In this document: positions 27,126 through 42,768 of the stretch, one piece after another
How the letters are laid out: every line of letters begins with the position of its first letter
How positions within the stretch are numbered: the stretch's first letter is position 1
Source of the DNA: Desulfobacterales bacterium
Lineage (GTDB): Bacteria; Desulfobacterota; Desulfobacteria; Desulfobacterales; UBA5852
DNA: 64,000 nt
Direction of reading: 5' to 3'
Assembly (NCBI GenBank): GCA_963674755.2
Contig: CAXXVS010000003.1
Coordinates: 1,312,001 to 1,376,000, forward strand
The notes under the pieces: generated by a model
What the model was told of the DNA's origin: nothing
The model's input: the letters and a program-made list of their open reading frames with translations, nothing else
Databases searched by the model: none
Translations under genes and position numbers: made by a program

Positions 27126-29024
27126 ATGAACGACAAGCCAGTTGCCCCTTCTGCGCCGGCACTGAATTCCCAGAGCAAATCCCTCGAAGAGGTTCACCGC
27201 ACGGTCGAGACCCAGCACCCCAACTTATTTAAGCGTATCTTTGCCTTTGCGGGACCGGCCTATCTGGTCAGCGTCGGTTACATGGATCCCGGCAACTGGG
27301 CCACCGACCTGGAGGGCGGCTCGCGTTTCGGCTATGCCCTGATCTGGGTGATCCTGATGTCGAACATGATGGCCGTGCTCCTGCAGACATTGGCGGCGCG
27401 CCTGGGGATTGTCACCGGCAAGGACCTGGCCCAGGCCTGCCGGGCCGAATATTCCAAATTCGCTTCTTTTGTGCTCTGGATCCTGTGCGAGATCGCCATT
27501 GCGGCCTGCGATCTGGCGGAATTGCTGGGCACCATCCTCGGGCTGAATCTTCTTTTCGGCCTGCCCCTGCTTTGGGGGGCATTGGTAACCCTGTTCGATA
27601 CATTTTTGCTGCTTGCGATCCAGCGCTTGGGGATGCGCAAAATGGAAGCGTTCATTCTTTCGTTGATCAGCGTCATTGCGGGCGGGTTCATGATCAATCT
27701 TTTTCTGGCCAAGCCGGACTGGGGTCCGGCGGCCGCCGGATTGATCCCTTCCCTGCCGGCGGGATCGCTTTACATCGCGCTCGGCATCATCGGCGCCACG
27801 GTCATGCCGCACAATCTTTATCTGCATTCCTCCCTGGTGCAGACCCGGCGGGTATCCCGCATTGTTGACTCAAAGGCCGAGGCCTGCCGCTATAACCTGC
27901 TCGATTCCGCCATCGCTTTAAATGCGGCCTTTTTTGTCAACACGGCCATTCTCGTCCTGGCGGCGGCTGTCTTTCATCGTCACGGCATTGTGGTTACCGA
28001 AATTCAGCAGGCCCACAAAATGCTCGACCAGCTTCTGGGCTCCCAGGCCGCACCCATCGCGTTCGGGTTGGCATTATTGGCCGCCGGTCAAAGCTCAACC
28101 CTGACCGGCACCCTGGCGGGGCAAATCGTCATGGAAGGGTTTGTCCGGATTCGCCTCCGACCTCATTTGCGACGTCTGATAACGCGTGTCATCGCGCTGC
28201 TGCCGGCCGTGGTGGTCATTTCGATCTCGGGCGATCAAGGGACCTACCAGCTGTTGATTCTCAGCCAGGTGATTCTGAGCCTGCAATTGCCGTTTGCCAT
28301 CGTTCCCCTGGTGCATTTTACCAGCGACAAGTTGAAAATGGGGTCCTTCGCCAGCAAGCTGTGGGTGAAGGTGTTGGCCTGGATTACGTCCGCCATCATT
28401 ATCGCGCTCAACGGCAAACTGGTTTACGACCAGGTCATGGGATGGATCACGGGGGGCGGTCCCCTGCTATTCTCCATTGCGGCGGTGTTGGGTGCGGCCG
28501 CCATTTCCCTTTTCCTGGTTTACATTATCATCCTTCCGCTGGTACGCGGCGAACGGGGGTGGATCGAAGAAAAGAGCGACGATGCTTCGGCGGTTATCGA
28601 GGGGATCGCAACCCAGCGCATACGCCATATCGCCGCCGCGCTGGGGCGGGATGCGAACGACACGGCCATCGTCAGCCGCGCCCTGTCCCTGGCCAGGGCG
28701 GAAAAGGCCCTGTTGACCCTTATCCATGTGGCCGACACGGCCATGGCACATGTCTACAACACGGATGGCTATGACGCCCATACCCGTGACGACGAGCACT
28801 ACCTGATGGAAATTATGGAAGAGATCCACTCCTCCGACGTGATGGTGGAAATTGCGCTGGCCTATGGTGATCCGGCCAAGGAACTGGTGAAATTCGCGAC
28901 AACGCACAACGTCGATATGTTGGTCATGGGATCCCACGGGCACCGCTTGCTGGGCGACCTTTTGTGGGGCGAAACCGTGGACCCGGTGCGCCACCGGGTC
29001 GATATTCCGGTTTTGGTGGTGTGA
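27126..29024 (+). CDS. mntH: NRAMP divalent metal transporter fused to a C-terminal USP domain
   Basis: YMDPGN, VMPHNLYLHS, GQSSTLTGT; USP motif MGSHGHR...GETV. Confidence 0.92.
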   Translation: MNDKPVAPSAPALNSQSKSLEEVHRTVETQHPNLFKRIFAFAGPAYLVSVGYMDPGNWATDLEGGSRFGYALIWVILMSNMMAVLLQTLAARLGIVTGKDLAQACRAEYSKFASFVLWILCEIAIAACDLAELLGTILGLNLLFGLPLLWGALVTLFDTFLLLAIQRLGMRKMEAFILSLISVIAGGFMINLFLAKPDWGPAAAGLIPSLPAGSLYIALGIIGATVMPHNLYLHSSLVQTRRVSRIVDSKAEACRYNLLDSAIALNAAFFVNTAILVLAAAVFHRHGIVVTEIQQAHKMLDQLLGSQAAPIAFGLALLAAGQSSTLTGTLAGQIVMEGFVRIRLRPHLRRLITRVIALLPAVVVISISGDQGTYQLLILSQVILSLQLPFAIVPLVHFTSDKLKMGSFASKLWVKVLAWITSAIIIALNGKLVYDQVMGWITGGGPLLFSIAAVLGAAAISLFLVYIIILPLVRGERGWIEEKSDDASAVIEGIATQRIRHIAAALGRDANDTAIVSRALSLARAEKALLTLIHVADTAMAHVYNTDGYDAHTRDDEHYLMEIMEEIHSSDVMVEIALAYGDPAKELVKFATTHNVDMLVMGSHGHRLLGDLLWGETVDPVRHRVDIPVLVV

Positions 29025-29041
29025 TCAGAAGATCATAACCG

Positions 29042-30154
29042 CTATTCGATGGCCTGGAATTCTTTCATGAATTTCCGGTCAATATAATCTTTGACCTTAA
29101 ACGCCAGTTTGCCGTCCATCAACAGCCAACGCTTGCGCAACACACCGATGCCGCCCCCCAGATTAAAGATCAGCAGATAGTCGCCCCCCGGATCAAAGGC
29201 CTGCAAGGGGGCGTCTTCCAGGGCCGCCATCAGGTTATGGTACAGCACCGGGTTCTGGCGCACGGCATAAACACCCACCTTGTCGAGCGGTTGTTTTTCA
29301 AAGTAGATGCAATCGCCGCCGCCGAACATGTCGGGGTGATCAACACTCTGAAGGTATTCATTGACCCGCAAACCGCCATTCGGACCCGTGGTCAAGGCCG
29401 AGTTTTTAAAAATGGAGTTGGGTCGAACGCCCATGGCCAGAAAAATAAAATCCAGCGCGTGGGCCTTGCCCGAAGTGAGCGTCACCGCCCCTGTTCCGAT
29501 GGATTCGGCATAGCCGTCGGTATTAATTTCAATGCCCCGCTGGGTGAGCACCCGCTGGATTTTGGCGGCAACCTTTTCAGGAAAGCGTCCCATAAAGCGC
29601 TTGCCGGCGAAGATTTTCACGACGGGTGACGGTCCCTGGATGTGGCGCGTCAATTGCCAGATATTCCCGGCCACTTCCGCCGCAGAAGGGCCGCCCCCCA
29701 GAATACCAATGGTGATGCGCTTCCTGGTCGCCAGTTCGAGAATCCGCGCCTGGGCCTCCATCAGTCGTTCAATGGGCTTGACCGCATAGACGTCCCGGGC
29801 CTCTTCAGGCAGATCGAGGCGGGGGACATGGCTGCCGGCGTTGAAGGAAATGACATCGTAGCCGACCGTCGCACCGGAGGCCAGTTCCACCGTTTTTTCG
29901 CCGGCCCGGATGCCAACCGCCTTGTCGCGGATAAAGGTTCCGCCCTGTTTCTCCACCACATGCCGGGTTTTAAAGCGGATGTCGTCCGGCGCATAGGTCT
30001 TCCCGAGCATCCCGGGCCCCATGCCGGAATAGTAATGGTGGTCGGACGGGCCAATGACGGTGACCCGGTGTCCCTTTTCGATAAAGGTGTGCAATTTTGC
30101 CAGGGTGACCATATGCGCGTGGCCGCCCCCGATCAGAACCAGATGTTTTCCCAT
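29042..30154 (-). CDS. FAD-dependent pyridine nucleotide-disulfide oxidoreductase (SelD N-terminal-like)
   Basis: GGGHAH, YSGMGPG, GGGPSAAE, GGGDC, GVYAVRQ. Confidence 0.82.
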   Translation of the reverse strand: MGKHLVLIGGGHAHMVTLAKLHTFIEKGHRVTVIGPSDHHYYSGMGPGMLGKTYAPDDIRFKTRHVVEKQGGTFIRDKAVGIRAGEKTVELASGATVGYDVISFNAGSHVPRLDLPEEARDVYAVKPIERLMEAQARILELATRKRITIGILGGGPSAAEVAGNIWQLTRHIQGPSPVVKIFAGKRFMGRFPEKVAAKIQRVLTQRGIEINTDGYAESIGTGAVTLTSGKAHALDFIFLAMGVRPNSIFKNSALTTGPNGGLRVNEYLQSVDHPDMFGGGDCIYFEKQPLDKVGVYAVRQNPVLYHNLMAALEDAPLQAFDPGGDYLLIFNLGGGIGVLRKRWLLMDGKLAFKVKDYIDRKFMKEFQAIE

Positions 30155-30156
30155 TG

Positions 30157-30990
30157 TTAGATCCTGTTATCCATGAGCTTGCCGAGTTGTTCGAGGTGCC
30201 CCCGCTCTTCTTCCGCAATTTTCTGCAAGGCTGCTTTGCTGCGCGGATCACGGCTTCTTTCCGATGCGCGGGTATACAGATCCAGGGCCTGGGCTTCAAT
30301 CGACATGGCCAGGGATATGACATCGACGGCGGAGTCCCAATCCGGTTGATACATTTGGACGTATTCATCCGTGGTCAGGCCGCCTTCCACGGCCTTGACC
30401 ACCAGATCCCGGTCGAAGGTTTCCCGGTCGATCTGTTTCCCTGCCACCTGAAGATATTCATTAAAGATGCGGTCCTGGTGCAGCAATTCGATGTCGGAGA
30501 GCTTGCGAAACAAATCTTTGATATCAGACGGCGGCACCTTTGCGATCATCGAGAGATAAAAGTCACGCAGTCCGGCCTCCAGGGAATAAGCGGCCACCAG
30601 GGTCTCCTCGATCGATTCCTTGCCCGTCAATAGTTCCAGGCCCGTTTCTTCGGACCCGACGGCCACCTGCCCGTCCCAGGCCTTGATGCCCCCTGCGATA
30701 TTGATGACATTGCCAAGCCCCTTGCCTGAAAGCATTTGAGCAGCGACACGGCTCCTCCCGCCGACGGCACAGTAGACGAGGGTGGGCTTGGACGGGTCGA
30801 TCTCGTCCAGGTGTTTATCCAATTCGGCAATGGGGATCAGCTTGGCGCCCGGAATATGGCGGTTTTCATATTCTTTAGGCTGGCGGACATCGATCAGGTT
30901 GAAATCCTCCTGGGATTTGCCCGCCATAAAGGTTCTGGCTTCCGTGGCCGTCATCGATGTCGCAGGGGTAAAAAATTGCTTCCAGCGCAT
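30157..30990 (-). CDS. Rhodanese plus ferritin/rubrerythrin-like fusion protein
   Basis: GGAGGAG RBS; DVRQPKEY..HIPGA and YCAVGGRS; diiron-type motifs ELLH and ERGH. Confidence 0.85.
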   Translation of the reverse strand: MRWKQFFTPATSMTATEARTFMAGKSQEDFNLIDVRQPKEYENRHIPGAKLIPIAELDKHLDEIDPSKPTLVYCAVGGRSRVAAQMLSGKGLGNVINIAGGIKAWDGQVAVGSEETGLELLTGKESIEETLVAAYSLEAGLRDFYLSMIAKVPPSDIKDLFRKLSDIELLHQDRIFNEYLQVAGKQIDRETFDRDLVVKAVEGGLTTDEYVQMYQPDWDSAVDVISLAMSIEAQALDLYTRASERSRDPRSKAALQKIAEEERGHLEQLGKLMDNRI

Positions 30991-31725
30991 AGGCTCCTCC
31001 TTGCAGTTGCAGTCAAAAAGCGTGTGGCAAACCGCCCCGGGTTGCAGCCCAGCGGGCGGGCGGTTTCCTATGATCTCAAGCGCTGCCATCAACAGGTGCG
31101 CAGCGCCTTATGGCATTATCGAGAAATCGCAGAACGCAAAAGGGATAGAATACCACTCGTGCAGTTTAAGCGAAAAAGAGGCCATCCGTCTCATATTCCA
31201 GCTGAGGTTACGGCATTCTATGCATAGCATATGAGAATCAGATCCGTTTAAACAGTAAACATAGGGGGATGTAAAAACTTCAGCGTACAGGAGCGGATCC
31301 GTTGCGTTCCGGGTCTGTCGCAAGGGGGAAATCGTAACGCCTATTTAGTCGACATGTATGTATTTTGTCAAGATTCACTCATAGTTACGTATTTTTTAGC
31401 GTTGTCTTGTGGCCGACTGATTTTATTGGATATATCTCGATATTGAAAGGGAATGACAAGTTAAGGGCCGTGTAACCGCGCCATCTGCGGCAACCGAATA
31501 GACTGCCGTATCAAGTTCAACATCGATATCCTCCGCGTGAGATACGATCACCACACGCTCTGCGGGTGGCGTGCCATTCCGCCAACACACCCAAACCATC
31601 CCGATTTCCCAGAGATATCCGGACCGTCAAATAGTTCGAGCTCAATTTGGTCTGAGGTTTCGGCACAGGCAAGTCATCACCAGGGGATCTGGTGGCGATT
31701 GGGGCCGGCACCCCCTCGTATCATG

Positions 31726-34512
31726 TCAACGCATGCCCAACTTGTTCATGCGGTTGTACAAGCTGGTGCGTTTCATGCCCAATAAGGCGGCGGCGCCGTC
31801 ATTGCCGGCGATTTTGCCGTTTGTCTGATCGAGTACAAAAGCAATATATCTCCGCTGCAGTTCTTCCATGCTGGGCAGGTCGTCGAAAGGATGGTTGTCA
31901 CCCCTCGTCGCTTTTTCAGCGTTGGGCAGGCTAATGGCCAGGGTATCGTCGGGGGACAGCAGCACGGAGCGTTCGATGATGTTCTCCAGTTCACGGACGT
32001 TGCCCGGCCAATGATAGCATTGCAATTGTCTTTCGGTTTCCGGGGAGAGGCCCAAAGCCGGGCGATTGTACTTACCGCAGAATCGTTCGACGAAGTGGCG
32101 TGCCAGCCGAAGAATATCATGGCCCCGTTTGCGCAGGGGCGGCAGCGTGATGGGGATCACGTTCAATCGATAATAAAGATCCTCCCGGAATCGCCCGGCG
32201 TTGACTTCACGGGCCAAATCGCGGTTGGTGGCCACGATGAGGCGAAAATTGGACGACAGGGTCCGGGTACCGCCGACGCGGACCATGGCCTTTTCCTGAA
32301 GGGCCCGCAGCAGCTTGACCTGGATCGTCAAGGGGATTTCGCCGACTTCATCGATGAACAGGGATCCATTGTGCGCCAGTTCAAGCCGCCCCGCTCTTTG
32401 GCGATCAGCGCCGGTAAAAGCCCCCTTTTCGTGGCCGAACAGCTCGCTTTCCACCAGGGTTTCCGGGATAGCCGTGGGATCGACGACCACCAAGGGATGT
32501 TCCCGGCGGAGGCTGCCGGCATGAATCCGCCGGGCCAGCAGTTCCTTTCCAACGCCAGTTTCTCCGAGAATCAGGATAGTACTGTCTGTCGCGGCGATGC
32601 GATCCACCTGATCCAGGAGGGATAGCATCACCGGGCTCCGGGCGATAATCTGCTTTTCGTCGACCTGGCCCATGCGACTGAGGCGCACCGTTGTTTTCTG
32701 TTCCATCCTTCGGGTGAAGCGCAGCATGTGGGCGATGTACTGGGATAAGGATTGCGCCATGCGCACCAGTTGGGCCGGTGCGAACTGATCGAAGCAATCG
32801 TCGACATAGGCATTGTCGTGGTAAAGCACGCCGCGCACCGTATCGTTTACCATGACGGGCACCGCCATCATGGCGCGGATCTGGCTCGGTAGGGAGGTCC
32901 CCATCGCTGAAGGCCGCACCACATGGGAGCAGTTGTCGCGGAAGGCCTTGAAAATCAGCGAGAGGCTGGTGCGGAATTCTTCCGTTGTCACATCCGATTG
33001 AAAAAGGTTGCAGGCCGCCCGCAATTTTGGGCCGCGATTCCGGGCTTTTTCTTCAAACCAGAAGATTCCGCCCCGCTCGGCACCAAAAAAGCGATTGGTC
33101 GCCCTTACCATGCGCTCCAGAAGTTCGTCCGGATCGTCACTCGGCACCAGATCCTGAATCATGGCGCTGAACATTTCCACCAATTCGGCACGCGCAACCG
33201 CGTCGGGCTTCCCGTCAAAGGCCCTGTCCAGCAGGCGCCGCAGGTCGTCCGGATAAAACACATCGCCGTAACCCGAAAACCCCTTCCAGGCCTGTTGGGC
33301 CAGGCGGCGGCCGACCGTCAGGTGCCCCTGGCCAATCTTCAGGCGGGCCATGGCGATGCGCGTTTTGCCCAATTGCACCGGATCACCCGATCGGGACAGC
33401 AGGGTTTCACTCCGCTGCAGGTCGGCTTCAACGGTATCCGGCGGAGCCGTCCCATGGGCCAGCGCATCCAGCGCCCGGAGCCGCAAAGCGACGCCTTGCA
33501 GATGGATGTTCGGTTCGGCCATCAACCGGCGGCATTCGCCTTTGAACGTAAAATGAGGAAGCTGGGGCAGTCCATTACTGTGGTATTCGTAGAGGAGTTC
33601 AAGCACGAACGGCGATGCGTATTGACGGACTAGCCCGGCCGAAGCGCCATCTTTGACGGCCCGGTCCATCCACTTGTGGGATTCCTCCAGCCGCCCTTCC
33701 ATCATATGGTGGAACGCCAGTCCACCCTTGGCGAAATAGCTGGCCAGATAATTCTGGGTCTGGATGCTTTCCTGCAGCGCACCGGACAAATGGTAGCCGG
33801 CTTCCTTCGTCTTCTTTATTCTGACCAGGAAGATGCCCAGTACGGCTCTTAGGGTGGCAGCCAGGCTATGATCCTGTCGTTCCATGGCCAGACGGCGGTA
33901 GTAATCCAGTGTGCCGATCGCTTTGTGGTACTGGCCTAGAAAAGCGGCGCAGTAGCACAACCACATGGCACCGGAATGGCCGTGTTCGCCGGACTCGAAT
34001 TTTTTGGCCGCCTGTTCGAAGTAGGACATGGCTTCCGAAAAGCGCCCTTGGATGAAAAAATACAGACCGATCAACTCCGAGGCGTTGGTCAGGATGTCCT
34101 CATCACCGAGGGCTTCGACTTCCTTCTTGCCCTGCTCGAAGCTATCCAATGCCAGGGGACGCTGCTCACCGAAATAGTAGACCCTTCCCAGATGCAGCTT
34201 GATCATGGCGGCCGAGCGGCGGTCGCCGATACGGTCGGCGGAATCGAGCGCCTTTTTCAGGAACAGGCCAAGCTCGCCAAACCCCTTGCCCACCACAAAG
34301 CAGGCGCGGGCATATTCGATACTGGCATTGACAAACTGCACATCGCGCTCCGGCGATGCCGGCTGTTTCTCCAAATTGGGGAGAAGGCTGTTTAGATGGT
34401 CCCAGGCGGCCTCGAAAGCGCCTCTGCCGGTTGCATCTCCTATAGGTCTTACTTCCCGGTGCGAAGAAAGGTTCTCGGATAGCATGCGATCAGAAGGCAT
34501 GGTGCGTTTCAT
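31726..34512 (-). CDS. sigma54-dependent enhancer-binding protein (TPR-like, GAF, AAA+, Fis HTH)
   Basis: [39 protein letters not shown]-terminal HTH. Confidence 0.93.
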
Positions 34513-34720: not shown

Positions 34721-34736
34721 TGGCATGTCGATTGCT
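34721..34736 (+). promoter_or_regulatory. sigma54 -24/-12 promoter
   Basis: TGGCATG-TCGA-TTGCT, preceded by an AT-rich IHF-like tract. Confidence 0.85.
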
Positions 34737-34940: not shown

Positions 34941-35336
34941 ATGCCAGCCTTTAAAGACACCCCGCAGATGTATGAAATGTTGAGCGATCTATGGACCTAC
35001 GTCATCAAAGAAACCGACTTCGGGCCGAAACTCAAAGAGTACGACATCACCTATAAATTCGTTATCAAGGATCCCAACGGATATCTGTTTGTGGCCCACG
35101 ATCAAGTGCTTACGGGGGATGAAGCCAACCAGGATGCCGTGATCACCATGGAACTCTCCGGGGATACCATCCACAGCTTCTGGCTCGGCAAGATCAAGCT
35201 GCCGGTCGCGCTGGCCACGCGTAAAATCAAATCCAAAGGTCCGATTCCCAAAGTCCTCAAAATTCTCCCCTTCCTCAAACCGGTGTATGAACTTTACCCG
35301 CAGTACTGCGAGAAATACGGTTTGGCTGTGGATTGA
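34941..35336 (+). CDS. SCP2 sterol/lipid-binding domain protein
   Basis: About 130 aa; MELSGDTIHSFWLGKI..ALATRKIKSKGP..KVLKILP. Alternative start at 34923. Confidence 0.75.
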   Translation: MPAFKDTPQMYEMLSDLWTYVIKETDFGPKLKEYDITYKFVIKDPNGYLFVAHDQVLTGDEANQDAVITMELSGDTIHSFWLGKIKLPVALATRKIKSKGPIPKVLKILPFLKPVYELYPQYCEKYGLAVD

Positions 35337-35379
35337 CGTTTGAAGAAGACATCCGACACGCCGCCATGAGGAGGGAAAA

Positions 35380-36984
35380 ATGGCTGACGCAATCGTGCCC
35401 GGCATCTTCTCTTTCGAACTCGATGCCAAAGCAGAAAACAATCCAACGACCGAAATCGTCACCTTCGAAAACGGGTCCCACCCCGATGAAGTGCTCACCT
35501 ACGCGCAACTCGTCATCAAGGGCCGCAAGCTGGCGCATCAGCTGCTGTCGCACAATTTTACCAGGGGCGACGTGCTGGCGCTTGTCATGCGCAACCATCC
35601 CGAATTTATGATCGCCCTTTATGCGGCCAACAGCATAGGCGCTGTTTTACTGCCCATCGACCCTCGCACCAAAGGCGACCGGCTGCAATATGTACTCAAA
35701 GATTCCGCCGCCAAGGGCATTATCTTCACCAGCGAATTCTTACCGAACGTTGCGGCGCAGTTGCCGCAGCTGCCGGAATTGAAGGTCATCGGGGTGGCCT
35801 GCAAGGACGGCATGGATCATACCGTGTCCGGCTATCCCGACCTGCGTGAAATATGGGATAGGGCTGAAGCGCCTCCTCCGGACGTGCGCTGCGAGGATCC
35901 CGCCGCTCCCATGGAAATCATCTACACTTCCGGGACCACGGGCGACCCCAAGGGGGTGGTTCTCAAAAACGCCCGTCTGGCACCTTTCGGTCAATTGGCA
36001 CGTGGTGTTTTTCAGTACCGTCCGGACGATAAGCTTTACACCGGCCTCTCCCTGAGTCACGGCAATGCCCAGGCCGTCACGATGGTGCCGTCGCTTTTTC
36101 TGGGTATCCCGTCCGTCTTCAGCCGCAGCTTTACCAAAAGCCGCATCTGGGACGTCTGCCGCCATTATGGTTGCACGACCTTTTCCCTGCTGGGGGGCAT
36201 GATGATGGGCATCTACAGCGAGACGGAAAGACCGGAAGATTATGACAACCCCGTGCGCCTGGTCATCAGCGCCGGCACACCCCTGGCCATCTGGGAGGCT
36301 TTCGAGAAGCGCTTCGGCGTGCTCATTCACGAATGGTACGGCGCGGTGGAAGGCGGTTTCGCCCACAAGCCGCCGGGCATAGGTCCCATCGGATCCTTCG
36401 GCAAACCGCTGGACGGCCTTTTGGAGATGAAGGTCGTCCGCGAAGACGATTCCGAGTGCGCGCCCTTTGAAACCGGAGAGATCATCTGTCAGGTCAAGGG
36501 ACAGAAAACGGAAGTCAATTACATGGGCAAGCAAGAAGCCTCGGAAAAGAAAACCCGCGGCGGCTGGCTGCGCACCGGCGACATGGGGCACACCGATGAA
36601 AACGGCTGGTTCTTCTTTGATTTCCGAAAAGGGGGTGGCCTTCGCCGGGCCGGCGATTTCATCCAGCCTGACTACATCGAGGCGGCTCTGGCGGAAAATC
36701 CGGTCATTGCCGAAGTGTGTGTCTACGGGGTGCCGGCGGCATCCGGAGCGCCGGGCGAAAGCGACATCGTGGCGGCCGTTGTGGCGGCCCAGGGCCAGAC
36801 CATCGACGCCGGAGCGCTCTTCCAATACTGTCGGCAGCGTCTCGAAGGCAATGCCGTCCCATCCTATCTGCAAATCGTCCCGGAAATTCCCAAGACGGCT
36901 TCCGAAAAGAATCTGGACCGGCTGTTGAAAGACGAATTCGGAAAAGAGGCCGGCAATGTCGTTGCGCTGTCGGATTACGCCTGA
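35380..36984 (+). CDS. Acyl-CoA ligase (CaiC-like AMP-binding enzyme)
   Basis: YTSGTTGDPKG, WYGAVE, GWLRTGD, PKTASEK. Confidence 0.9.
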   Translation: MADAIVPGIFSFELDAKAENNPTTEIVTFENGSHPDEVLTYAQLVIKGRKLAHQLLSHNFTRGDVLALVMRNHPEFMIALYAANSIGAVLLPIDPRTKGDRLQYVLKDSAAKGIIFTSEFLPNVAAQLPQLPELKVIGVACKDGMDHTVSGYPDLREIWDRAEAPPPDVRCEDPAAPMEIIYTSGTTGDPKGVVLKNARLAPFGQLARGVFQYRPDDKLYTGLSLSHGNAQAVTMVPSLFLGIPSVFSRSFTKSRIWDVCRHYGCTTFSLLGGMMMGIYSETERPEDYDNPVRLVISAGTPLAIWEAFEKRFGVLIHEWYGAVEGGFAHKPPGIGPIGSFGKPLDGLLEMKVVREDDSECAPFETGEIICQVKGQKTEVNYMGKQEASEKKTRGGWLRTGDMGHTDENGWFFFDFRKGGGLRRAGDFIQPDYIEAALAENPVIAEVCVYGVPAASGAPGESDIVAAVVAAQGQTIDAGALFQYCRQRLEGNAVPSYLQIVPEIPKTASEKNLDRLLKDEFGKEAGNVVALSDYA

Positions 36985-37023
36985 CAACGGGACGCCCACG
37001 CAACTGAAAGGAGAATAGCGTCA

Positions 37024-37824
37024 ATGAAACGATATGTGGAAGACCTTGATTTCCAGGGCGAAGAACGCATCAGCGATTGGACGCCCTGGTCCCCTCAGGA
37101 TATCCGACGCAAAAAAGGCGTTCTCGAAGCCGCCCGCCTGATGGTGAACGCCGCCCTGACGGCGCCTGCTGCCGGGGGCGTGCCCCAGGTCGAGGCGGAT
37201 ATCGTCTACGGACAGGAAGAAATCGAAGCCGTCGCCCGCAAGGTGGAAGAGATCGCCCATACCAACCCGGCCTGGAAAGAGCCCTTTCTCTACGAGGCCG
37301 TCATGGCCCGCGATTCGGACGTCCTGATCTTCCTGGGGAATACGCGCTGCCACGAAACGCCCCTCGACGCCGGATGCGGTATGTGCGGCGGCGGACTCGA
37401 CTGCTCCTATTTCTATGAAAAGGTCGAGCAGCGCTGCGGCCTGGTCGATATCACCGACCGCACCTCGCAAACCATGATCAAAGGCCCTCTGTGCACGGCC
37501 CGGGTGGACGACCTGGGTTATGCCGTGGGCAGCGCCCTGTGGATGGCCCATTCTCTTCTGGTGGACGCCCGCCCCTTTGCCAGCATGGGTATGGCGGCCC
37601 AGAAGCTGGGCTATTGTTCCAATTCAGGTCTGGTCGTGGCGGTACCGGTGGCCGCCAAGCCTAAAAATCCCTATGTGGATATCAACGTGGACTACCACCT
37701 GATCAACATGGACAAAGCGCTGGACAACACCCGCAAGATATTTCAAACCGCCCGATTGCTGCGGGGATTCGACTACCGCAAGTGGATTCCCAAACCCTCG
37801 GCGGAGAAAGAGGAGGAAGCCTAA
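37024..37824 (+). CDS. DUF2148-family Fe-S protein, paralog 1
   Basis: AALTAP, CGMCGGGLDC, GPLC...DLGYAVGSA...VDAR, KNPYVD. Confidence 0.75.
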   Translation: MKRYVEDLDFQGEERISDWTPWSPQDIRRKKGVLEAARLMVNAALTAPAAGGVPQVEADIVYGQEEIEAVARKVEEIAHTNPAWKEPFLYEAVMARDSDVLIFLGNTRCHETPLDAGCGMCGGGLDCSYFYEKVEQRCGLVDITDRTSQTMIKGPLCTARVDDLGYAVGSALWMAHSLLVDARPFASMGMAAQKLGYCSNSGLVVAVPVAAKPKNPYVDINVDYHLINMDKALDNTRKIFQTARLLRGFDYRKWIPKPSAEKEEEA

Positions 37825-38660
37825 TGGGACATCTCATCGGAAAGGACTACCTCCAGGAGCATGTGCTGGAGGTGGCGAAGAATATCGTTTTAGCCATCCA
37901 CAAGGCACCCCAGATCACCGGCAAGACGCAGATCGAGGCCGAAATCCTGTGGGGTGAAGACCTGGTGCCCATTATCGAGATCCTCGAACCGATCGCCAAG
38001 GCGGTGCGCTATGTGCAGTGGGATTATCAGACCCTCAAGGGGTGCCTGGACAAGGGCGAATCGCCGTTCATCGTCGCTATTGGCGCCAAAGTGGACCGCT
38101 CCAACCTGGGCTGGGACTGCGGTGCCTGCGGACAGCCCACCTGCAAGGATTTTAATGCGTACGCCAAAGACCTGGGCGGCGGCGGACAACTCGGCGGACC
38201 GTGCTGCAACTGGAAAATTCTGGATTACGCCATTGCCTGCGACTGGGCCTGTGCCGCCGCCTGGCAAAATCGCGTCGACAACCGCATCATGGGGTCGGTG
38301 GGATTTGCCCTGCAGGCCTTCAACTACCTGCCCAACTCCTCGGTCAAACTCGGGCTGGCACTGGGTCCGCCGCGGGATATGGTCTACTACAGCCGCGAGG
38401 AGATGCACCGGCATATCACCTATGAAGAAGAAAAACAGGATATGCTTCACACGGTCCCCACCATGTTTACGACGTTTCCCGGTCCCGGGGATCCCATGTA
38501 CAAAACCAAAAACGACTGGTGGGCTCCACCGGAATATTTGAACGTGGATTACTCCGAGGCCAAAATGGACGGTCTGAATACCGTATTGTACGAACAGGTG
38601 CCCGAGATCGTCGTCAAGCACGCCGATGCCGTGGCTGCCCGCTATACAAAAAAATCCTAG
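37824..38660 (+). CDS. DUF2148-family Fe-S protein, paralog 2
   Basis: AIHKAP, CGACGQPTC, GPCC...DYAIA...VDNRIMGSVG; TAATG coupling to paralog 1. Confidence 0.75.
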   Translation: MGHLIGKDYLQEHVLEVAKNIVLAIHKAPQITGKTQIEAEILWGEDLVPIIEILEPIAKAVRYVQWDYQTLKGCLDKGESPFIVAIGAKVDRSNLGWDCGACGQPTCKDFNAYAKDLGGGGQLGGPCCNWKILDYAIACDWACAAAWQNRVDNRIMGSVGFALQAFNYLPNSSVKLGLALGPPRDMVYYSREEMHRHITYEEEKQDMLHTVPTMFTTFPGPGDPMYKTKNDWWAPPEYLNVDYSEAKMDGLNTVLYEQVPEIVVKHADAVAARYTKKS

Positions 38661-38676
38661 CGATGGGGAGGGAGTG

Positions 38677-39921
38677 ATGAGTTATCTTGATTTGAACCTG
38701 AATCTTTCCAAAGAAGACCGAATGCTCAAACAGGCCGCCCACGAGTTCGCCCGGGATGTCATGCGGCCCGTAGCTGCGGAAATGGACAAGATGACCGCGG
38801 AAGAAGCCGTAGCGCCGGGCTCGCCCTTCTGGGACTTCAAGAAGAAGGCCTACGAGCTGGAATTGCATACCATCCTGATCCCCGATGCCTATGGCGGTCA
38901 GGGCCTGAGTCCCCTGCAACTCCATCTTGTCCTCGAAGAGCTGGCCTGGGGCAGCGTCGGGCTTACGGTGGACCTGGTGATTGCCTCTTTCCCGGCCTAT
39001 CTTGCCTCCATGGTGCCGGAAGAAGAGATCGTCGAAGAGATCATCGTGCCCTTTTGTGAGTGCCGCAACGGTAAGATCGCCGGATGCTGGGCCATCACCG
39101 AACCCATGCACGGTTCGGATACCCTGCTGCCCGGATACCCGAGTTTCCGTGATTCGGCCATTCCGGCCGACTGCACGGCCACCCTGGATGGCGACCATTA
39201 CGTGATCAACGGCCAGAAAGCGGCCTGGGTTTCCGGTGCCCCTTACGCTTCCCACGCCGCGCTGTTCTGTCAGGCCGATCCTGCCATGGGGCATGCCGGC
39301 GGCATCATTATTGTGGCGCCGCTGGATTTGCCAGGCGTCAAAAGAGGGGCTCCTCTGGAAAAAATGGGACAGCGCGATGACCCCCAGGGCGAGATCTTTT
39401 TCGACAACGTCCGGGTGCCGGCCAAATACCTCATCGCCGGTCCGGAAGCCTATGAAGCTATGCTGGAGATCGTGTTGTCGGCGACCACCGTCATGATGGG
39501 CATCCTGGCTACCGGCATCGGCCGGGCCGCGTTTGAAGAGGCCCTGGCCTATGCCAAAAAGCGGGTGCAGTGCGGCAAAGCCCTGGTGGAGCATCAGGAT
39601 GTCCAGAAGAAGCTCTATGATATGTTCGGTAAAGTAGAGATCTGCCGCCAGATAACCCGCAGCGTGCTGGCCTACAACCAGAATACCTCCACTCCGGCGG
39701 AAGAGTATTCGGTGCTCGGCAAAGTGTTTGCCTGCCAGTATGCCCTGGATGTCACCAATGAGGCGATTCAGATCTTCGGCGGCAACGGATTGAGCCGTGA
39801 GTACATTGTCGAAAAACTCTTCCGGGATGCACGCTCCATGCTGATCGAGGACGGCTCGAACGATGTGCTGGCCATTGCCGGGGGACATAAGGTGGTCCAG
39901 ACCTATCCGCGGCGTGATTGA
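38677..39921 (+). CDS. Acyl-CoA dehydrogenase
   Basis: AITEPMHGSD, INGQKAWVS, KMGQR, FDNVRVP, QIFGGNG, FRDAR. Confidence 0.92.
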   Translation: MSYLDLNLNLSKEDRMLKQAAHEFARDVMRPVAAEMDKMTAEEAVAPGSPFWDFKKKAYELELHTILIPDAYGGQGLSPLQLHLVLEELAWGSVGLTVDLVIASFPAYLASMVPEEEIVEEIIVPFCECRNGKIAGCWAITEPMHGSDTLLPGYPSFRDSAIPADCTATLDGDHYVINGQKAAWVSGAPYASHAALFCQADPAMGHAGGIIIVAPLDLPGVKRGAPLEKMGQRDDPQGEIFFDNVRVPAKYLIAGPEAYEAMLEIVLSATTVMMGILATGIGRAAFEEALAYAKKRVQCGKALVEHQDVQKKLYDMFGKVEICRQITRSVLAYNQNTSTPAEEYSVLGKVFACQYALDVTNEAIQIFGGNGLSREYIVEKLFRDARSMLIEDGSNDVLAIAGGHKVVQTYPRRD

Positions 39922-40011
39922 TGAATTGGGTCGATATGGCGGGCCATCGGCCGTCTTGCCTGATAGGACGGCCGATCCGCTGATGCATTCCTTCCATACA
40001 GGGGGATTTCT

Positions 40012-41250
40012 ATGAACAACGTCTATATCATCGGCCTCGGTATGATCCGCTTCGGCAAGTACCCGGATCGGGGCGTGCGGGACATGGCCCACGAGGCGAT
40101 TCGGCTGGCCCTCGAAGATGCCGCCCTGGACCGCAAAGACCTTCAGGCGGCTTACTTTGCCAATACCTTCTGGGGCATGTTCGACAACCAGCACTCCATC
40201 AAGGGCCAGGTCGTGCTGCGTTCCATGGGAGTCGACCGGATTCCGGTGACCAATGTGGAAAATGCCTGCGCCGGTGCTTCGACGGCACTGCACCTGGCCT
40301 ACACCGGCATTCGGGCCGGTATGGTCGATGTGGCCCTGGCCGTCGGTTCGGAAAAGATCACCTCGCCGGACAAGGCCAAGTCCCTGGGCGCCTATGCCGC
40401 TTGTATGGATGTGGCCGGCTTCGAGGCGCACATCGCAAAGCTGACCGCCCTCAGCCAATCCTTCAACCTGGAGATTCCGGAAGAAAACACTCCCCCGGGG
40501 GCCGGCCGCAGCATCTTCATGGACGCCTACGCCACCTTCGCCCGCTGGCACATGAGCAGGTTCGGTTCCACCCAACAGCAGCTCGCGCGCATCGCTGCCA
40601 AAAATCACTGGCACGGTTCACTGAACCCCAAAGCCCAGTACCAGCAGGACATGACCATGGAGGCGGTGCTCAACGACGTTCCGGTCACCTATCCCCTGAC
40701 ACGCGCCATGTGCGCCCCAGTGGGCGACGGTGCGGCGGCAGCCATCGTCTGTTCCGAGGCCTTTCTTAAAAAGCTGACCGCGGCCCGGCCGGTGGAAATT
40801 CTGGCCTCGGTGCACGGATCGGGCTGCGACCGCGATATGGATGGCGAAGACATCGGCGAACGGCTTGCCAATCAGGCCTACGCCATGGCCGGTGTGGGCC
40901 CCAAGGACATCAGCCTGGCCGAACTGCACGACGCTACGGCTTACGGCGAACTGCACCAGGTGGAAGCCATGGGGTTTTGTCCGGTGGGCGAAGGAGGGCT
41001 ATGGGCCGAATCAGGCGCCACCCAGCTTGGCGGGCAACAGCCTGTGAATACCAGCGGCGGGCTGGAATGCCGCGGCCATCCCATCGGTGCTTCGGGTCTG
41101 GCCCAGATTTTCGAGCTGGGAACGCAGCTGCGCGGTGAGGCCGGCAAACGCCAGGTCGAGGGGGCCCGCATCGGGCTGGCGGAGAACGGCGGCGGCAATA
41201 TCGGCGTGGAGGAGGCGGCCATGTGCATCCATATCCTGGGAAAAGTGTAG
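40012..41250 (+). CDS. Thiolase family protein (SCP-x type)
   Basis: VENACAGAS, ELHDA, GHPIGASG, ENGGG. Confidence 0.9.
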   Translation: MNNVYIIGLGMIRFGKYPDRGVRDMAHEAIRLALEDAALDRKDLQAAYFANTFWGMFDNQHSIKGQVVLRSMGVDRIPVTNVENACAGASTALHLAYTGIRAGMVDVALAVGSEKITSPDKAKSLGAYAACMDVAGFEAHIAKLTALSQSFNLEIPEENTPPGAGRSIFMDAYATFARWHMSRFGSTQQQLARIAAKNHWHGSLNPKAQYQQDMTMEAVLNDVPVTYPLTRAMCAPVGDGAAAAIVCSEAFLKKLTAARPVEILASVHGSGCDRDMDGEDIGERLANQAYAMAGVGPKDISLAELHDATAYGELHQVEAMGFCPVGEGGLWAESGATQLGGQQPVNTSGGLECRGHPIGASGLAQIFELGTQLRGEAGKRQVEGARIGLAENGGGNIGVEEAAMCIHILGKV

Positions 41251-41262
41251 ACTGGAGGGCAA

Positions 41263-42042
41263 ATGGGTAAGCGCAAGTGCATTTTCATCACCGGGGCGGC
41301 ATCGGGTATCGGGCGGGCCACAGCGCACCTGTTTGCCCGCAAGGGCTGGTATCCCGGTATCGTTGACCTGAGTATGGAAGGGCTTCATTCGCTGGCGGAG
41401 GAGATCGGCGCCGAACACTGCTTTGTCCGGGGTGCGGATGTGACCGACCCGGATAATTATCGGCAGGCGGTGGCCGCCTTCGCGGAAGAGACCGGCGGAC
41501 AGATGGACGTCCTGTTCAACAACGCCGGCATCCTGCGGATGGGCCGCAATGAAACCATTGCCCTTAAGGAGCAGCACCGTACCGTCGATATCAACATCAA
41601 GGGCATCCTGAACGGCATCGACGCCGCTTTGCCGCTGCTAAAAAAAACGCCCGGGGCGCGCATCATTTCCATGTGCTCGACTTCTTCGGTTTATGGAATG
41701 CCGGAGCTGGCGGTTTACTCCGCCACCAAACATGCCGTTTGTGCTCTGACGGAAGCCTTCGATCTGGAACTGGAACGCTATGGCATCGGCGTGTGCGACA
41801 TCATGGCCCCCTATGTCGCCACGCCCATGGTCACGGAAGCCGTGCAGCAGGCCCACAGCGTGGCTTCCACCGGCGTCAATCTCACGGCCGAACAGATCGC
41901 GTCGCTGGTGTGGAAGGCGGCCCACGGCCATAAGCTCCATTGGAAAATTCATTATTTGACCCATGTCCTTTTTTTTGCTTTCTGGGCCCTGCCGTTTCTT
42001 AGGCGCCCGGTCGTCAAACATCTCTGTCTGTCCAAAGGTTAG
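41263..42042 (+). CDS. Short-chain dehydrogenase/reductase
   Basis: TGAASGIG, NNAG, YSATK. Confidence 0.92.
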   Translation: MGKRKCIFITGAASGIGRATAHLFARKGWYPGIVDLSMEGLHSLAEEIGAEHCFVRGADVTDPDNYRQAVAAFAEETGGQMDVLFNNAGILRMGRNETIALKEQHRTVDINIKGILNGIDAALPLLKKTPGARIISMCSTSSVYGMPELAVYSATKHAVCALTEAFDLELERYGIGVCDIMAPYVATPMVTEAVQQAHSVASTGVNLTAEQIASLVWKAAHGHKLHWKIHYLTHVLFFAFWALPFLRRPVVKHLCLSKG

Positions 42043-42140: not shown

Positions 42141-42570
42141 ATGCGTGTGCTGGTCACCGGGGCAGCTGGCTATATCGGTGGGAGAATGGTGGACGCTTTA
42201 TGCGCCCAAGACTGGGTCGAGGCCGTGAGCGGGACGGATATCCGCAAGCCGGGAGCAACCGGTTTCCGGCCCTACCTTTTACCAGCGCGATATTCGCGAC
42301 GACATGAGCGACCTCTTCGAGAAAGAGCGCATCGATACCGTGGTGCACACCGCCTATGTCCTACCGCCCATCCACGACAAGGTTCTCATGGAGGAGATCA
42401 ACAAGGGCGGTACCCGCAACATACTGAAATAGTCGGCCCGCGCCGGTGTCAAACAGATCTTGTACACCAGCTCCACTACGGCCTATGGGTTCTATCCGGA
42501 CAATGACCAGCCGCTAACCGAGGAAAGTTCCCTGCGGGGCAACGATGACTTCACCTATGCCAAGAATAAA
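42141..42570 (+). pseudogene. NAD-dependent epimerase/dehydratase pseudogene
   Basis: AGGAGG then MRVLVTGAAGYIG; frameshift near 42270; in-frame TAG at 42430; homology ends right after YAKNK. Confidence 0.85.
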
Positions 42571-42768
42571 TTAGTACGATACCCGGGGCGCTTATCGTGA
42601 TTTCGTGGACTTCCTGATTTGAAGGCATCGATTGAGGTCGACGAGAACAGGCAAATCGTCGGCAGTGCCATATCGCCAATCCAAGGGCATCAGGCCCTTT
42701 CTCTTCAGCATGACGGCTTTAAACGTTATTGTATTCCCCTATGACTGGACTTCATATTGGCAGGGTAT

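Follow-up and report, generated by a model that had tools for sequence, protein, structure and literature searches.

This analysis concerns a seven-gene operon in a 64-kb stretch of DNA from a Desulfobacterales bacterium (the whole stretch analysed, hereafter "the window"), in which two adjacent genes for proteins of the DUF2148 family (subunits A and B, together "the pair") lie among genes of acyl-coenzyme A (CoA) metabolism. Gene calls in the window were checked against the cut-offs of Pfam (PF accessions) and NCBIfam. The seven genes are a real operon, all on the plus strand between positions 34941 and 42042, and comprise the following (lengths in amino acids, aa):

34941..35336, plus strand: SCP2-like lipid carrier, 131 aa (PF02036, 21.5 bits, E 3e-4, barely above the cut-off)
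35380..36984, plus strand: ATP-dependent acyl-CoA ligase, 534 aa (PF00501 and PF13193)
37024..37824, plus strand: DUF2148 subunit A, 266 aa, predicted nitroreductase fold (PF09918, 64.3 bits)
37824..38660, plus strand: DUF2148 subunit B, 278 aa, predicted nitroreductase fold (PF09918, 45 bits; weak PF04060)
38677..39921, plus strand: acyl-CoA dehydrogenase, IxDG subfamily, 414 aa (Pfam)
40012..41250, plus strand: SCP2-type thiolase, 412 aa, with the motifs ENACAGA, HDAT and GHPIGAS (closest solved relatives and motifs)
41263..42042, plus strand: short-chain dehydrogenase/reductase (SDR), 259 aa (NCBIfam PRK08267, above the cut-off)

Both DUF2148 proteins score above the PF09918 gathering cut-off of 25 bits. 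The layout is that described by a first-pass annotation made from the sequence alone, which had listed seven co-directional acyl-CoA genes including twin DUF2148 genes, and had remarked on the lack of an enoyl-CoA hydratase, an electron-transfer flavoprotein (ETF) and an OB-fold thiolase partner. We likewise found no hydratase, ETF or OB-fold gene inside the window operon. However, the rest of the genome holds two ETF-alpha, three ETF-beta and 10 hydratase-like matches, and because both kinds of gene occur elsewhere, the absence of ETF and hydratase from the operon is weak evidence when taken alone. Judged with our own hidden Markov models (HMMs), SCP2 is present in 48 of the 51 pair loci of the window's operon type, and the SDR in just 23 of them. 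The ligase reached no NCBIfam equivalog cut-off among the 25 matches listed. The closest solved relatives of the thiolase are BbsB (7pxp, E 8e-59) and a type-1 SCP2-thiolase (6hsj, E 1e-58), and its three motifs are kept across relatives.

The acyl-CoA dehydrogenase (ACAD) reads IEDG where the medium-chain ACAD 1ukw has IYEG, which places an Asp at the column of the catalytic Glu. The Asp motif is kept across the ACAD family, as IEDG or, in some relatives, as IADG. Other ACADs are described as placing or replacing the catalytic base elsewhere, and those with a relocated aspartate base perform unusual eliminations, the aspartate concerned sitting at a different position (PMC9293079). The best NCBIfam match of the window enzyme is the acryloyl-CoA reductase AcrC, far below the cut-off. 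As an observation in its own right, the IEDG/IADG subfamily to which the gene at 38677-39921 belongs is widespread, and several genomes hold at least six matches to it. The operon shares its ligase, ACAD, SCP2 and SCP2-type thiolase with peroxisomal-type branched-chain beta-oxidation and with BbsAB, but differs from both in lacking a hydratase and an OB-fold subunit, and in having an IEDG dehydrogenase and a probable extra iron-sulfur (Fe-S) redox enzyme.

The stop codon of the gene for subunit A overlaps the start codon of that for subunit B as TAATG, and the two products are 26% identical over 186 aa (BLASTP), with a profile-profile probability of 98.4%. The genome has no other PF09918 match. 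Each of the two proteins has four cysteines (C118, C121, C127 and C157 in A; C99, C102, C107 and C128 in B) in the motif CxxC-x4/5-C...GPxC. Among the pairs that we aligned, all 104 first genes and all 103 second genes keep these cysteines, and so do single DUF2148 proteins. The translational coupling, strong divergence and four cysteines per protein reported by the first-pass annotation thus all hold. Neither subunit matches PF00881 at E up to 0.01, the ETF domains PF01012 and PF00766, or any crotonase or hot-dog family of Pfam; nor does either match any chain of the PDB by sequence at E up to 10.

Both subunits are predicted to have the core fold of nitroreductases (NTRs), in line with the nitroreductase-like fold named for this family in the first-pass annotation. 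This prediction is based on AlphaFold monomer models with a pLDDT (the confidence measure of the method) of 69.9 for A and 82.4 for B, which were compared with known structures by Foldseek (A and B) and VIA (A). With the model of A, Foldseek gave 80 matches of E 0.001 or lower, to nitroreductases, and by VIA the model aligned with 3gfa_B (Z 14.2, root-mean-square deviation (rmsd) 6.7, 166 residues aligned) and 3e39_A (Z 13.4, rmsd 2.6, 129 aligned). For the model of B, no Foldseek match reached E 0.001, but the matches listed are chains with the nitroreductase fold, the best of them at E 4.8e-3. Like the FMN nitroreductases 3gfa, 3e39, 3pxv and the iodotyrosine deiodinase 5ko7, the pair would have this core fold, a Pro-containing tight turn and, probably, a dimeric state. 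Unlike them, it lacks the RxSxR motif, contains an internal four-cysteine motif and consists of two different subunits with, apparently, one conserved site.

The conservation of the two subunits is complementary. In A, the turn T46-x-P48-x-x-G51-G52 is invariant (103 of 103), and in B, R154 is invariant (103 of 103), as is R191. The reciprocal positions vary: B has P29 in 88 of 102 sequences, and A has R183 in 86 of 104. Further invariant basic residues are R29, R96, K214 and R244 in A, besides R154 and R191 in B. A rule that calls for a small residue two positions after the si-face residue does not discriminate, this position being variable in A and Gly in 78 of 103 B sequences. In NTRs, the turn is contributed by the other subunit. 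The flavin sites of NTRs sit at the subunit interface (PMC8668982). The complementary conservation of the A turn and the B arginine fits one shared active site. Given the reciprocal conservation, the interfacial position of NTR sites and the swapped turn, we infer from these alignments a heterodimer in which one site has been retained and the other has decayed.

The distribution of DUF2148 was surveyed in 301 genomes sampled evenly across the phylum, from which 33 pairs outside G000 and seven single genes were retrieved. A search with an alignment of subunit A gave 114 loci, of which the best 80 were added (from Desulfobacterales, Bacillota and records labelled Myxococcota); cultured carriers named by this search are Desulfatibacillum alkenivorans DSM 16219, Desulfocicer vacuolatum DSM 3385 and Desulfallas sp. 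Bu1-1. PF09918 matches occur in 70 of the 301 genomes, and just 23 of these 70 have tandem pairs (34 pairs in total, as read from coordinates), in agreement with the earlier statement that DUF2148 is usually single. The neighbourhood survey that had been proposed with that statement finds tandem pairs conserved with acyl-CoA genes: near 50 well-flanked pairs there is a thiolase in 43 cases, a ligase in at least 42 and an SDR in 14, these being counts from our own HMMs that can miss divergent genes. Many loci use a PaaK-type ligase; SCP2 is missing at 25 of the 50, and 16 of the 50 have no ACAD within 7 kb.

Subunit A precedes subunit B in every complete pair, and the start-stop overlap TAATG is found in 32 of 103 pairs. 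In a quick tree of 112 rows, the first genes group in one clade and the second genes in another (SH-aLRT 99 and 96), with mirrored sub-groups; the exceptions are mislabelled rows, namely a split gene (L048) and two genes truncated at contig ends (L081 and L114). This pattern points to one old duplication followed by co-inheritance of A and B. A search for subunit B in 12 congeneric genomes and four others from the same family (completeness 70-99%) found it in none of them, so the operon is accessory. A search of the Atlas returned only DUF2148 clusters. The short single DUF2148 proteins (PF09918) share the four cysteines, an AP turn and a DNR-type strand with pair members, but are about 175-200 aa long and lie outside acyl-CoA clusters, whereas pair members have 215-300 aa and fall into the two separate clades. 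Two further forms were noticed: a shorter pair type (about 225 and 216 aa) at L023-L034, which is TetR-controlled and has the order SCP2, pair, ligase, ACAD, thiolase; and P0361, a chain of 349 aa that seemingly contains two short DUF2148-like units, of which Pfam scores the second only.

When the pair is absent, its place in the operon is most often taken by a canonical nitroreductase. The 301 genomes were searched with the operon dehydrogenase, and 60 regions were retrieved around matches that did not lie beside a known pair. A locus was accepted when this dehydrogenase had a co-directional thiolase and ligase within 6 kb, which gave 75 loci after the removal of eight duplicates, and the fillers were typed by HMMs built from the loci, with Pfam checks. 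Fifty loci carry the pair only, 18 a canonical NTR only (17 by script plus L166, confirmed by Pfam), one carries both (L079) and six carry neither. In the 24 sister operons that lack the pair, an NTR is thus found in 18 and a hydratase in four. Four of the six loci with neither filler have an enzyme of the FadH/old yellow enzyme (OYE) type; OYE was rejected as an exclusive substitute for the pair, since OYE genes also occur beside it in 7 of 50 loci. On the dehydrogenase tree the filler labels interleave, with 9 and 10 changes, of which 7 and 8 are forced by starred branches. Between the two operon types, sequence identity reaches 84% for the thiolases and 79% for the ligases. G000 contains just about three NTR genes in 6.7 Mb.

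The sister NTRs occur alone, fused to a ferredoxin, or fused to the operon dehydrogenase itself (about 770 aa); at L139 and L140, the fusion is to a ferredoxin and also to a GltD-type module (819 aa). The ferredoxin-NTR proteins (Fer4 and PF00881) resemble the pair in occupying the same operon slot, in combining an NTR fold with Fe-S and in acquiring the same kind of GltD-type add-on. They differ from it in that they retain RRSxR and APSxGN, have a separate dicluster ferredoxin domain, are mostly single genes and are not detectably close to the pair by profile. Single chains of about 770 aa comprising an ACAD, a dicluster ferredoxin and an NTR were found at L163:4-2316 (minus strand), L164:6026-8341 (plus), L165, L166:5346-7658 (minus), L167 and L168:2674-4968 (minus). 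When long open frames over ACADs were checked, these six were true fusions and the others GC-rich or N-gap artefacts; the six loci partly overlap the 75, and four of the fusions were confirmed by Pfam. Two additional kinds of gene were observed. A protein of about 360 aa, in which Pfam finds only a dicluster ferredoxin at the C-terminus, recurs close to these clusters (L154:5059-6165, L004:11970-13055, L026:9714-10832), and genes of the Asp/Glu/hydantoin racemase family lie within sister operons (L138:3178-3768, L151:9281-10138), a possible hint of a chiral substrate.

The same dehydrogenase was found in 11 records of plasmids from aerobes. Seven of these were retrieved; all seven have a DUF5938 gene and a ligase, and six have a thiolase. 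Soil bacteria that carry DUF5938 include Azoarcus sp. KH32C and Cupriavidus necator. DUF5938 is a saccharopine-dehydrogenase-type NAD(P)-binding protein in which Pfam finds no flavin or Fe-S domain, and a PDB sequence search with it gave no match. Rv2953, of the saccharopine dehydrogenase family, is listed as a putative enoyl reductase in PMC3089613. This plasmid-borne aerobic version, with IEDG dehydrogenase, ligase, thiolase and DUF5938, was seen at L183:16088-17194, L184:13225-14358, L185:13272-14402, L186:8584-9699 and L187-L189, and the clusters place DUF5938 in a pathway context.

Some relatives of the pair are fused to an electron-transfer module. Seven longer relatives of A (proteins or clusters, about 745 aa) all consist of A plus Fer4_20 and Pyr_redox_2, and are 53-59% identical to the first of them. 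A profile search with B yielded P0249 (a cluster of 12), where a module of this kind interrupts subunit B immediately ahead of its CxxC, and it is this kind of module that is joined to ferredoxin-NTRs at L139 and L140 (33-42% identical). The A and B fusions are two separate events and tie the pair to NAD(P)H. The fused modules carry a GxGxxA...YRRS pattern, which is characteristic of enzymes of the GltD type that use NADPH. Neither Fer4_20 nor Pyr_redox_2 is present in the proteins of the window, and the genome has at least five close stand-alone GltD-like matches. The A-module fusion matched in none of 401 genomes of the phylum, a search made with no positive control, and a metagenome scan gave only unfused relatives. 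Dihydropyrimidine dehydrogenase/GltD and the 2,4-dienoyl-CoA reductase FadH join, as do the fused relatives, an NAD(P)H-FAD module through an Fe-S wire to a second catalytic domain, and the pair probably works in a similar way. In dihydropyrimidine dehydrogenase and FadH that domain is a TIM-barrel flavin domain; here it would instead be an NTR-fold pair, and the window proteins are without the module.

Because canonical NTRs take the same slot and some relatives are fused to an NADPH-type module, the pair is likely to form one Fe-S redox enzyme that takes its electrons from NADPH or ferredoxin. We consider a redox role as such highly probable, when the first three explanations discussed here are taken together. 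The first of these, which we favour but hold only tentatively, is that the pair is a heterodimeric NTR-fold reductase with a predicted [4Fe-4S] cluster in each subunit, acting directly on a CoA-thioester intermediate and most probably reducing a conjugated C=C bond, for which NADPH or ferredoxin would supply the electrons. The ligase would activate an acid carried by SCP2, and the IxDG dehydrogenase would desaturate the CoA ester, passing its electrons to ETF. The pair could then remove a double bond that blocks beta-oxidation, in the fashion of a dienoyl-CoA reductase, after which housekeeping hydratase and 3-hydroxyacyl-CoA dehydrogenase would yield the 3-oxo ester for cleavage by the SCP2-type thiolase. 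Electrons may run from NAD(P)H to the FAD of the GltD-type module, on to the Fe-S clusters and into one active site made of the A turn and the B arginine, probably with a flavin; the module is fused in some relatives and would be separate, or replaced by ferredoxin, in the window organism. Of this scheme, the gene order, the conservation, the fusions and the exchange of the slot are observed and the fold is predicted, while we infer the dimer, the clusters, the flavin, the action at substrate level and the direction. The first-pass annotation had left the step open among hydration, isomerisation, enoyl reduction and electron transfer; the module fusions and the exchange of the slot with NTRs strongly support the redox steps among these, while hydration and isomerisation are disfavoured and ETF-type electron transfer is weakened. 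Its bulky lipophilic substrate acid is suggested by SCP2, which half of the well-flanked pairs lack.

Several observations weigh against this tentative reductase. The loci with and without the pair were gathered by different queries and include near relatives, one locus (L079) carries pair and NTR together, and the OYE genes beside the pair (7 of 50) have already been mentioned. The RxSxR phosphate motif (sought as R[RH]SxR in the first 70 residues) is present in none of 218 aligned DUF2148 sequences and is invariant in 14 of 14 sister NTRs, those with ferredoxin retaining both RRSxR and APSxGN. The Arg and Ser of the N-terminal conserved-core motif bind the phosphate and ribityl of FMN in the nitroreductase superfamily (PMC6017928). 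The profile probability between A or B and the sister NTRs is only 5-6%, so the pair and the NTR fillers are not close homologues and, given this value and the absence of RxSxR, flavin binding by the pair is putative. The pair may work like an Fe-S-wired flavoenzyme, but by its sequence it fails the tests for canonical nitroreductases. GltD-type modules also serve oxidative enzymes, and the six ACAD-ferredoxin-NTR fusions fit a role as electron partner at least as well. With a reductase, genes outside the operon would have to supply the hydratase and the 3-hydroxyacyl-CoA dehydrogenase (SDR at 23 of 51 loci, hydratase at 1 of 51), and the steady lack of both functions, like the Asp in the catalytic column, is not accounted for by the reductase that we favour.

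A second explanation, which we judge rather unlikely, is that the same heterodimer runs oxidatively and converts a 3-hydroxy or 3-amino/imino ester to 3-oxoacyl-CoA, its electrons passing by Fe-S to NAD(P)+, ferredoxin or ETF. The genes that accompany the pair most steadily are indeed those for thiolase, in 43 of 50 cases, and ligase, in at least 42, and not that for SDR, in 14. At L108, L111, L113, L115 and L118, the set is reduced to the pair with a thiolase, an OB-fold protein and a PaaK-type ligase. The fusions and the exchange of the slot fit oxidation equally well. Against this, NAD-linked alcohol oxidation needs no Fe-S wire, and the GxGxxA...YRRS pattern of the fused modules is that of the NADPH-using GltD type. 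FadH and dihydropyrimidine dehydrogenase are parallels for the reductive direction. Since ene-reductases are found in the families of both the fused module and the other fillers of the slot, C=C reduction, still tentative and by analogy, is favoured over the less probable oxidation to the 3-oxo ester. The nitroreductase superfamily itself includes dehydrogenases (PMC8668982).

Less probable again is a role as the electron partner of the IxDG ACAD, in which the pair would be an alternative to ETF connecting the FAD of that enzyme to NAD(P)H or ferredoxin, and might turn the ACAD into an enoyl-CoA reductase. We keep this unlikely explanation because the ACAD-ferredoxin-NTR fusions (L163-L168) argue for it. 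In addition, the pair has no canonical FMN motif and adjoins the ACAD, in many relatives as well as in the window; the best, if distant, NCBIfam match of the window ACAD is AcrC. However, genes for ETF-alpha and a CCG-domain Fe-S oxidoreductase, with ETF-beta in seven of the eight cases, follow in the same operon at 8 of 51 loci, 16 of 50 pairs have no nearby ACAD, no IxDG ACAD was found in G302, where the pair is present, and the aerobic filler DUF5938 has no flavin or Fe-S domain. Action at substrate level is therefore favoured over an ETF-like role.

It is also improbable that A and B act separately as homodimers, or have an accessory role in Fe-S or flavin handling outside the substrate chemistry. 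Single short DUF2148 genes, which are common and lie outside acyl-CoA clusters, speak for such roles, but the constant order of A before B, the TAATG overlap (32 of 103), the mirrored clades and the complementary conservation speak for joint action. Slightly less credible still, and the least probable of all, is a non-redox hydratase or isomerase at the missing enoyl-CoA hydratase step: a hydratase lies within 6 kb in just 1 of 51 pair operons of this type and the window has the remaining beta-oxidation functions, but NAD(P)H modules are fused to both subunits in relatives, sisters without the pair carry an NTR (18 of 24) far more than a hydratase (4 of 24), the complete set of four cysteine ligands suits electron transfer and not Lewis-acid hydration, 10 hydratase-like matches lie elsewhere in the genome, and a hydratase adjoins the pair in L094 and L098.

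Three features flank the operon:

31726..34512, minus strand: divergent sigma54-dependent activator with a TPR-like region, GAF, AAA+ with GAFTGA, and a helix-turn-helix (PF00158 E 3e-65, GAF, HTH_8)
34721..34736, plus strand: sigma54 -24/-12 promoter-like box, the sole consensus match in 64 kb, with 0.21 expected by chance
42141..42575, plus strand: broken extended-SDR/epimerase gene, end approximate (three-frame reading; weak PF01370)

The divergent activator, which recurs at many related loci, is likely to be the regulator of the operon. A TGGC-N7-TTGC box lies 5' of SCP2 at 16 of 26 loci that bear the activator and at none of 10 TetR-type loci, and this recurrence, with the consensus box and the activator, supports the sigma54 control proposed in the first reading. 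A scan for sigma70 promoters and terminators gave matches at chance level only. The epimerase-type gene after the SDR is damaged by a frameshift, an in-frame stop and truncation, and is intact (about 315 aa) in 14 of 51 related operons. Further upstream, we recognised by eye a rhodanese and rubrerythrin-like fusion upstream of the activator (30157-31092, minus strand), an FAD-dependent oxidoreductase following it (29042-30154, minus) and a metal transporter of the Nramp type whose C-terminal domain resembles universal stress proteins (27126-29024, plus).

In a literature search that left most subscription papers and supplements outside its reach, we found no paper on DUF2148, COG4739 or DUF5938, and no relevant paper on combinations of nitroreductase and acyl-CoA enzymes, the sister ferredoxin-NTRs or the ACAD-ferredoxin-NTR fusions. 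A wider proposal, which we regard as doubtful, is that anaerobes and aerobes have in common a CoA-ester pathway not described so far, made up of four enzymes: a ligase, an Asp-base dehydrogenase, an SCP2-type thiolase and a redox enzyme that can be exchanged for another. The pair would be a new class within it, a heterodimeric Fe-S, single-site reductase resembling dihydropyrimidine dehydrogenase and derived from a rebuilt NTR fold; together with the dehydrogenase, it may send the electrons of the alpha,beta-bond to another bond, giving the 3-oxo ester without a hydratase.

The analysis offers a testable class of function for three uncharacterised families, namely the DUF2148 pairs, the ferredoxin-nitroreductase group and DUF5938. 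It also outlines a catabolic route of sulfate reducers, Bacillota and soil Pseudomonadota on which we found no paper, and the aerobic versions would provide genetically tractable hosts in which to find the substrate. If this assignment of function is right, the NTR fold became an Fe-S-wired acyl-CoA enzyme in two separate lineages.

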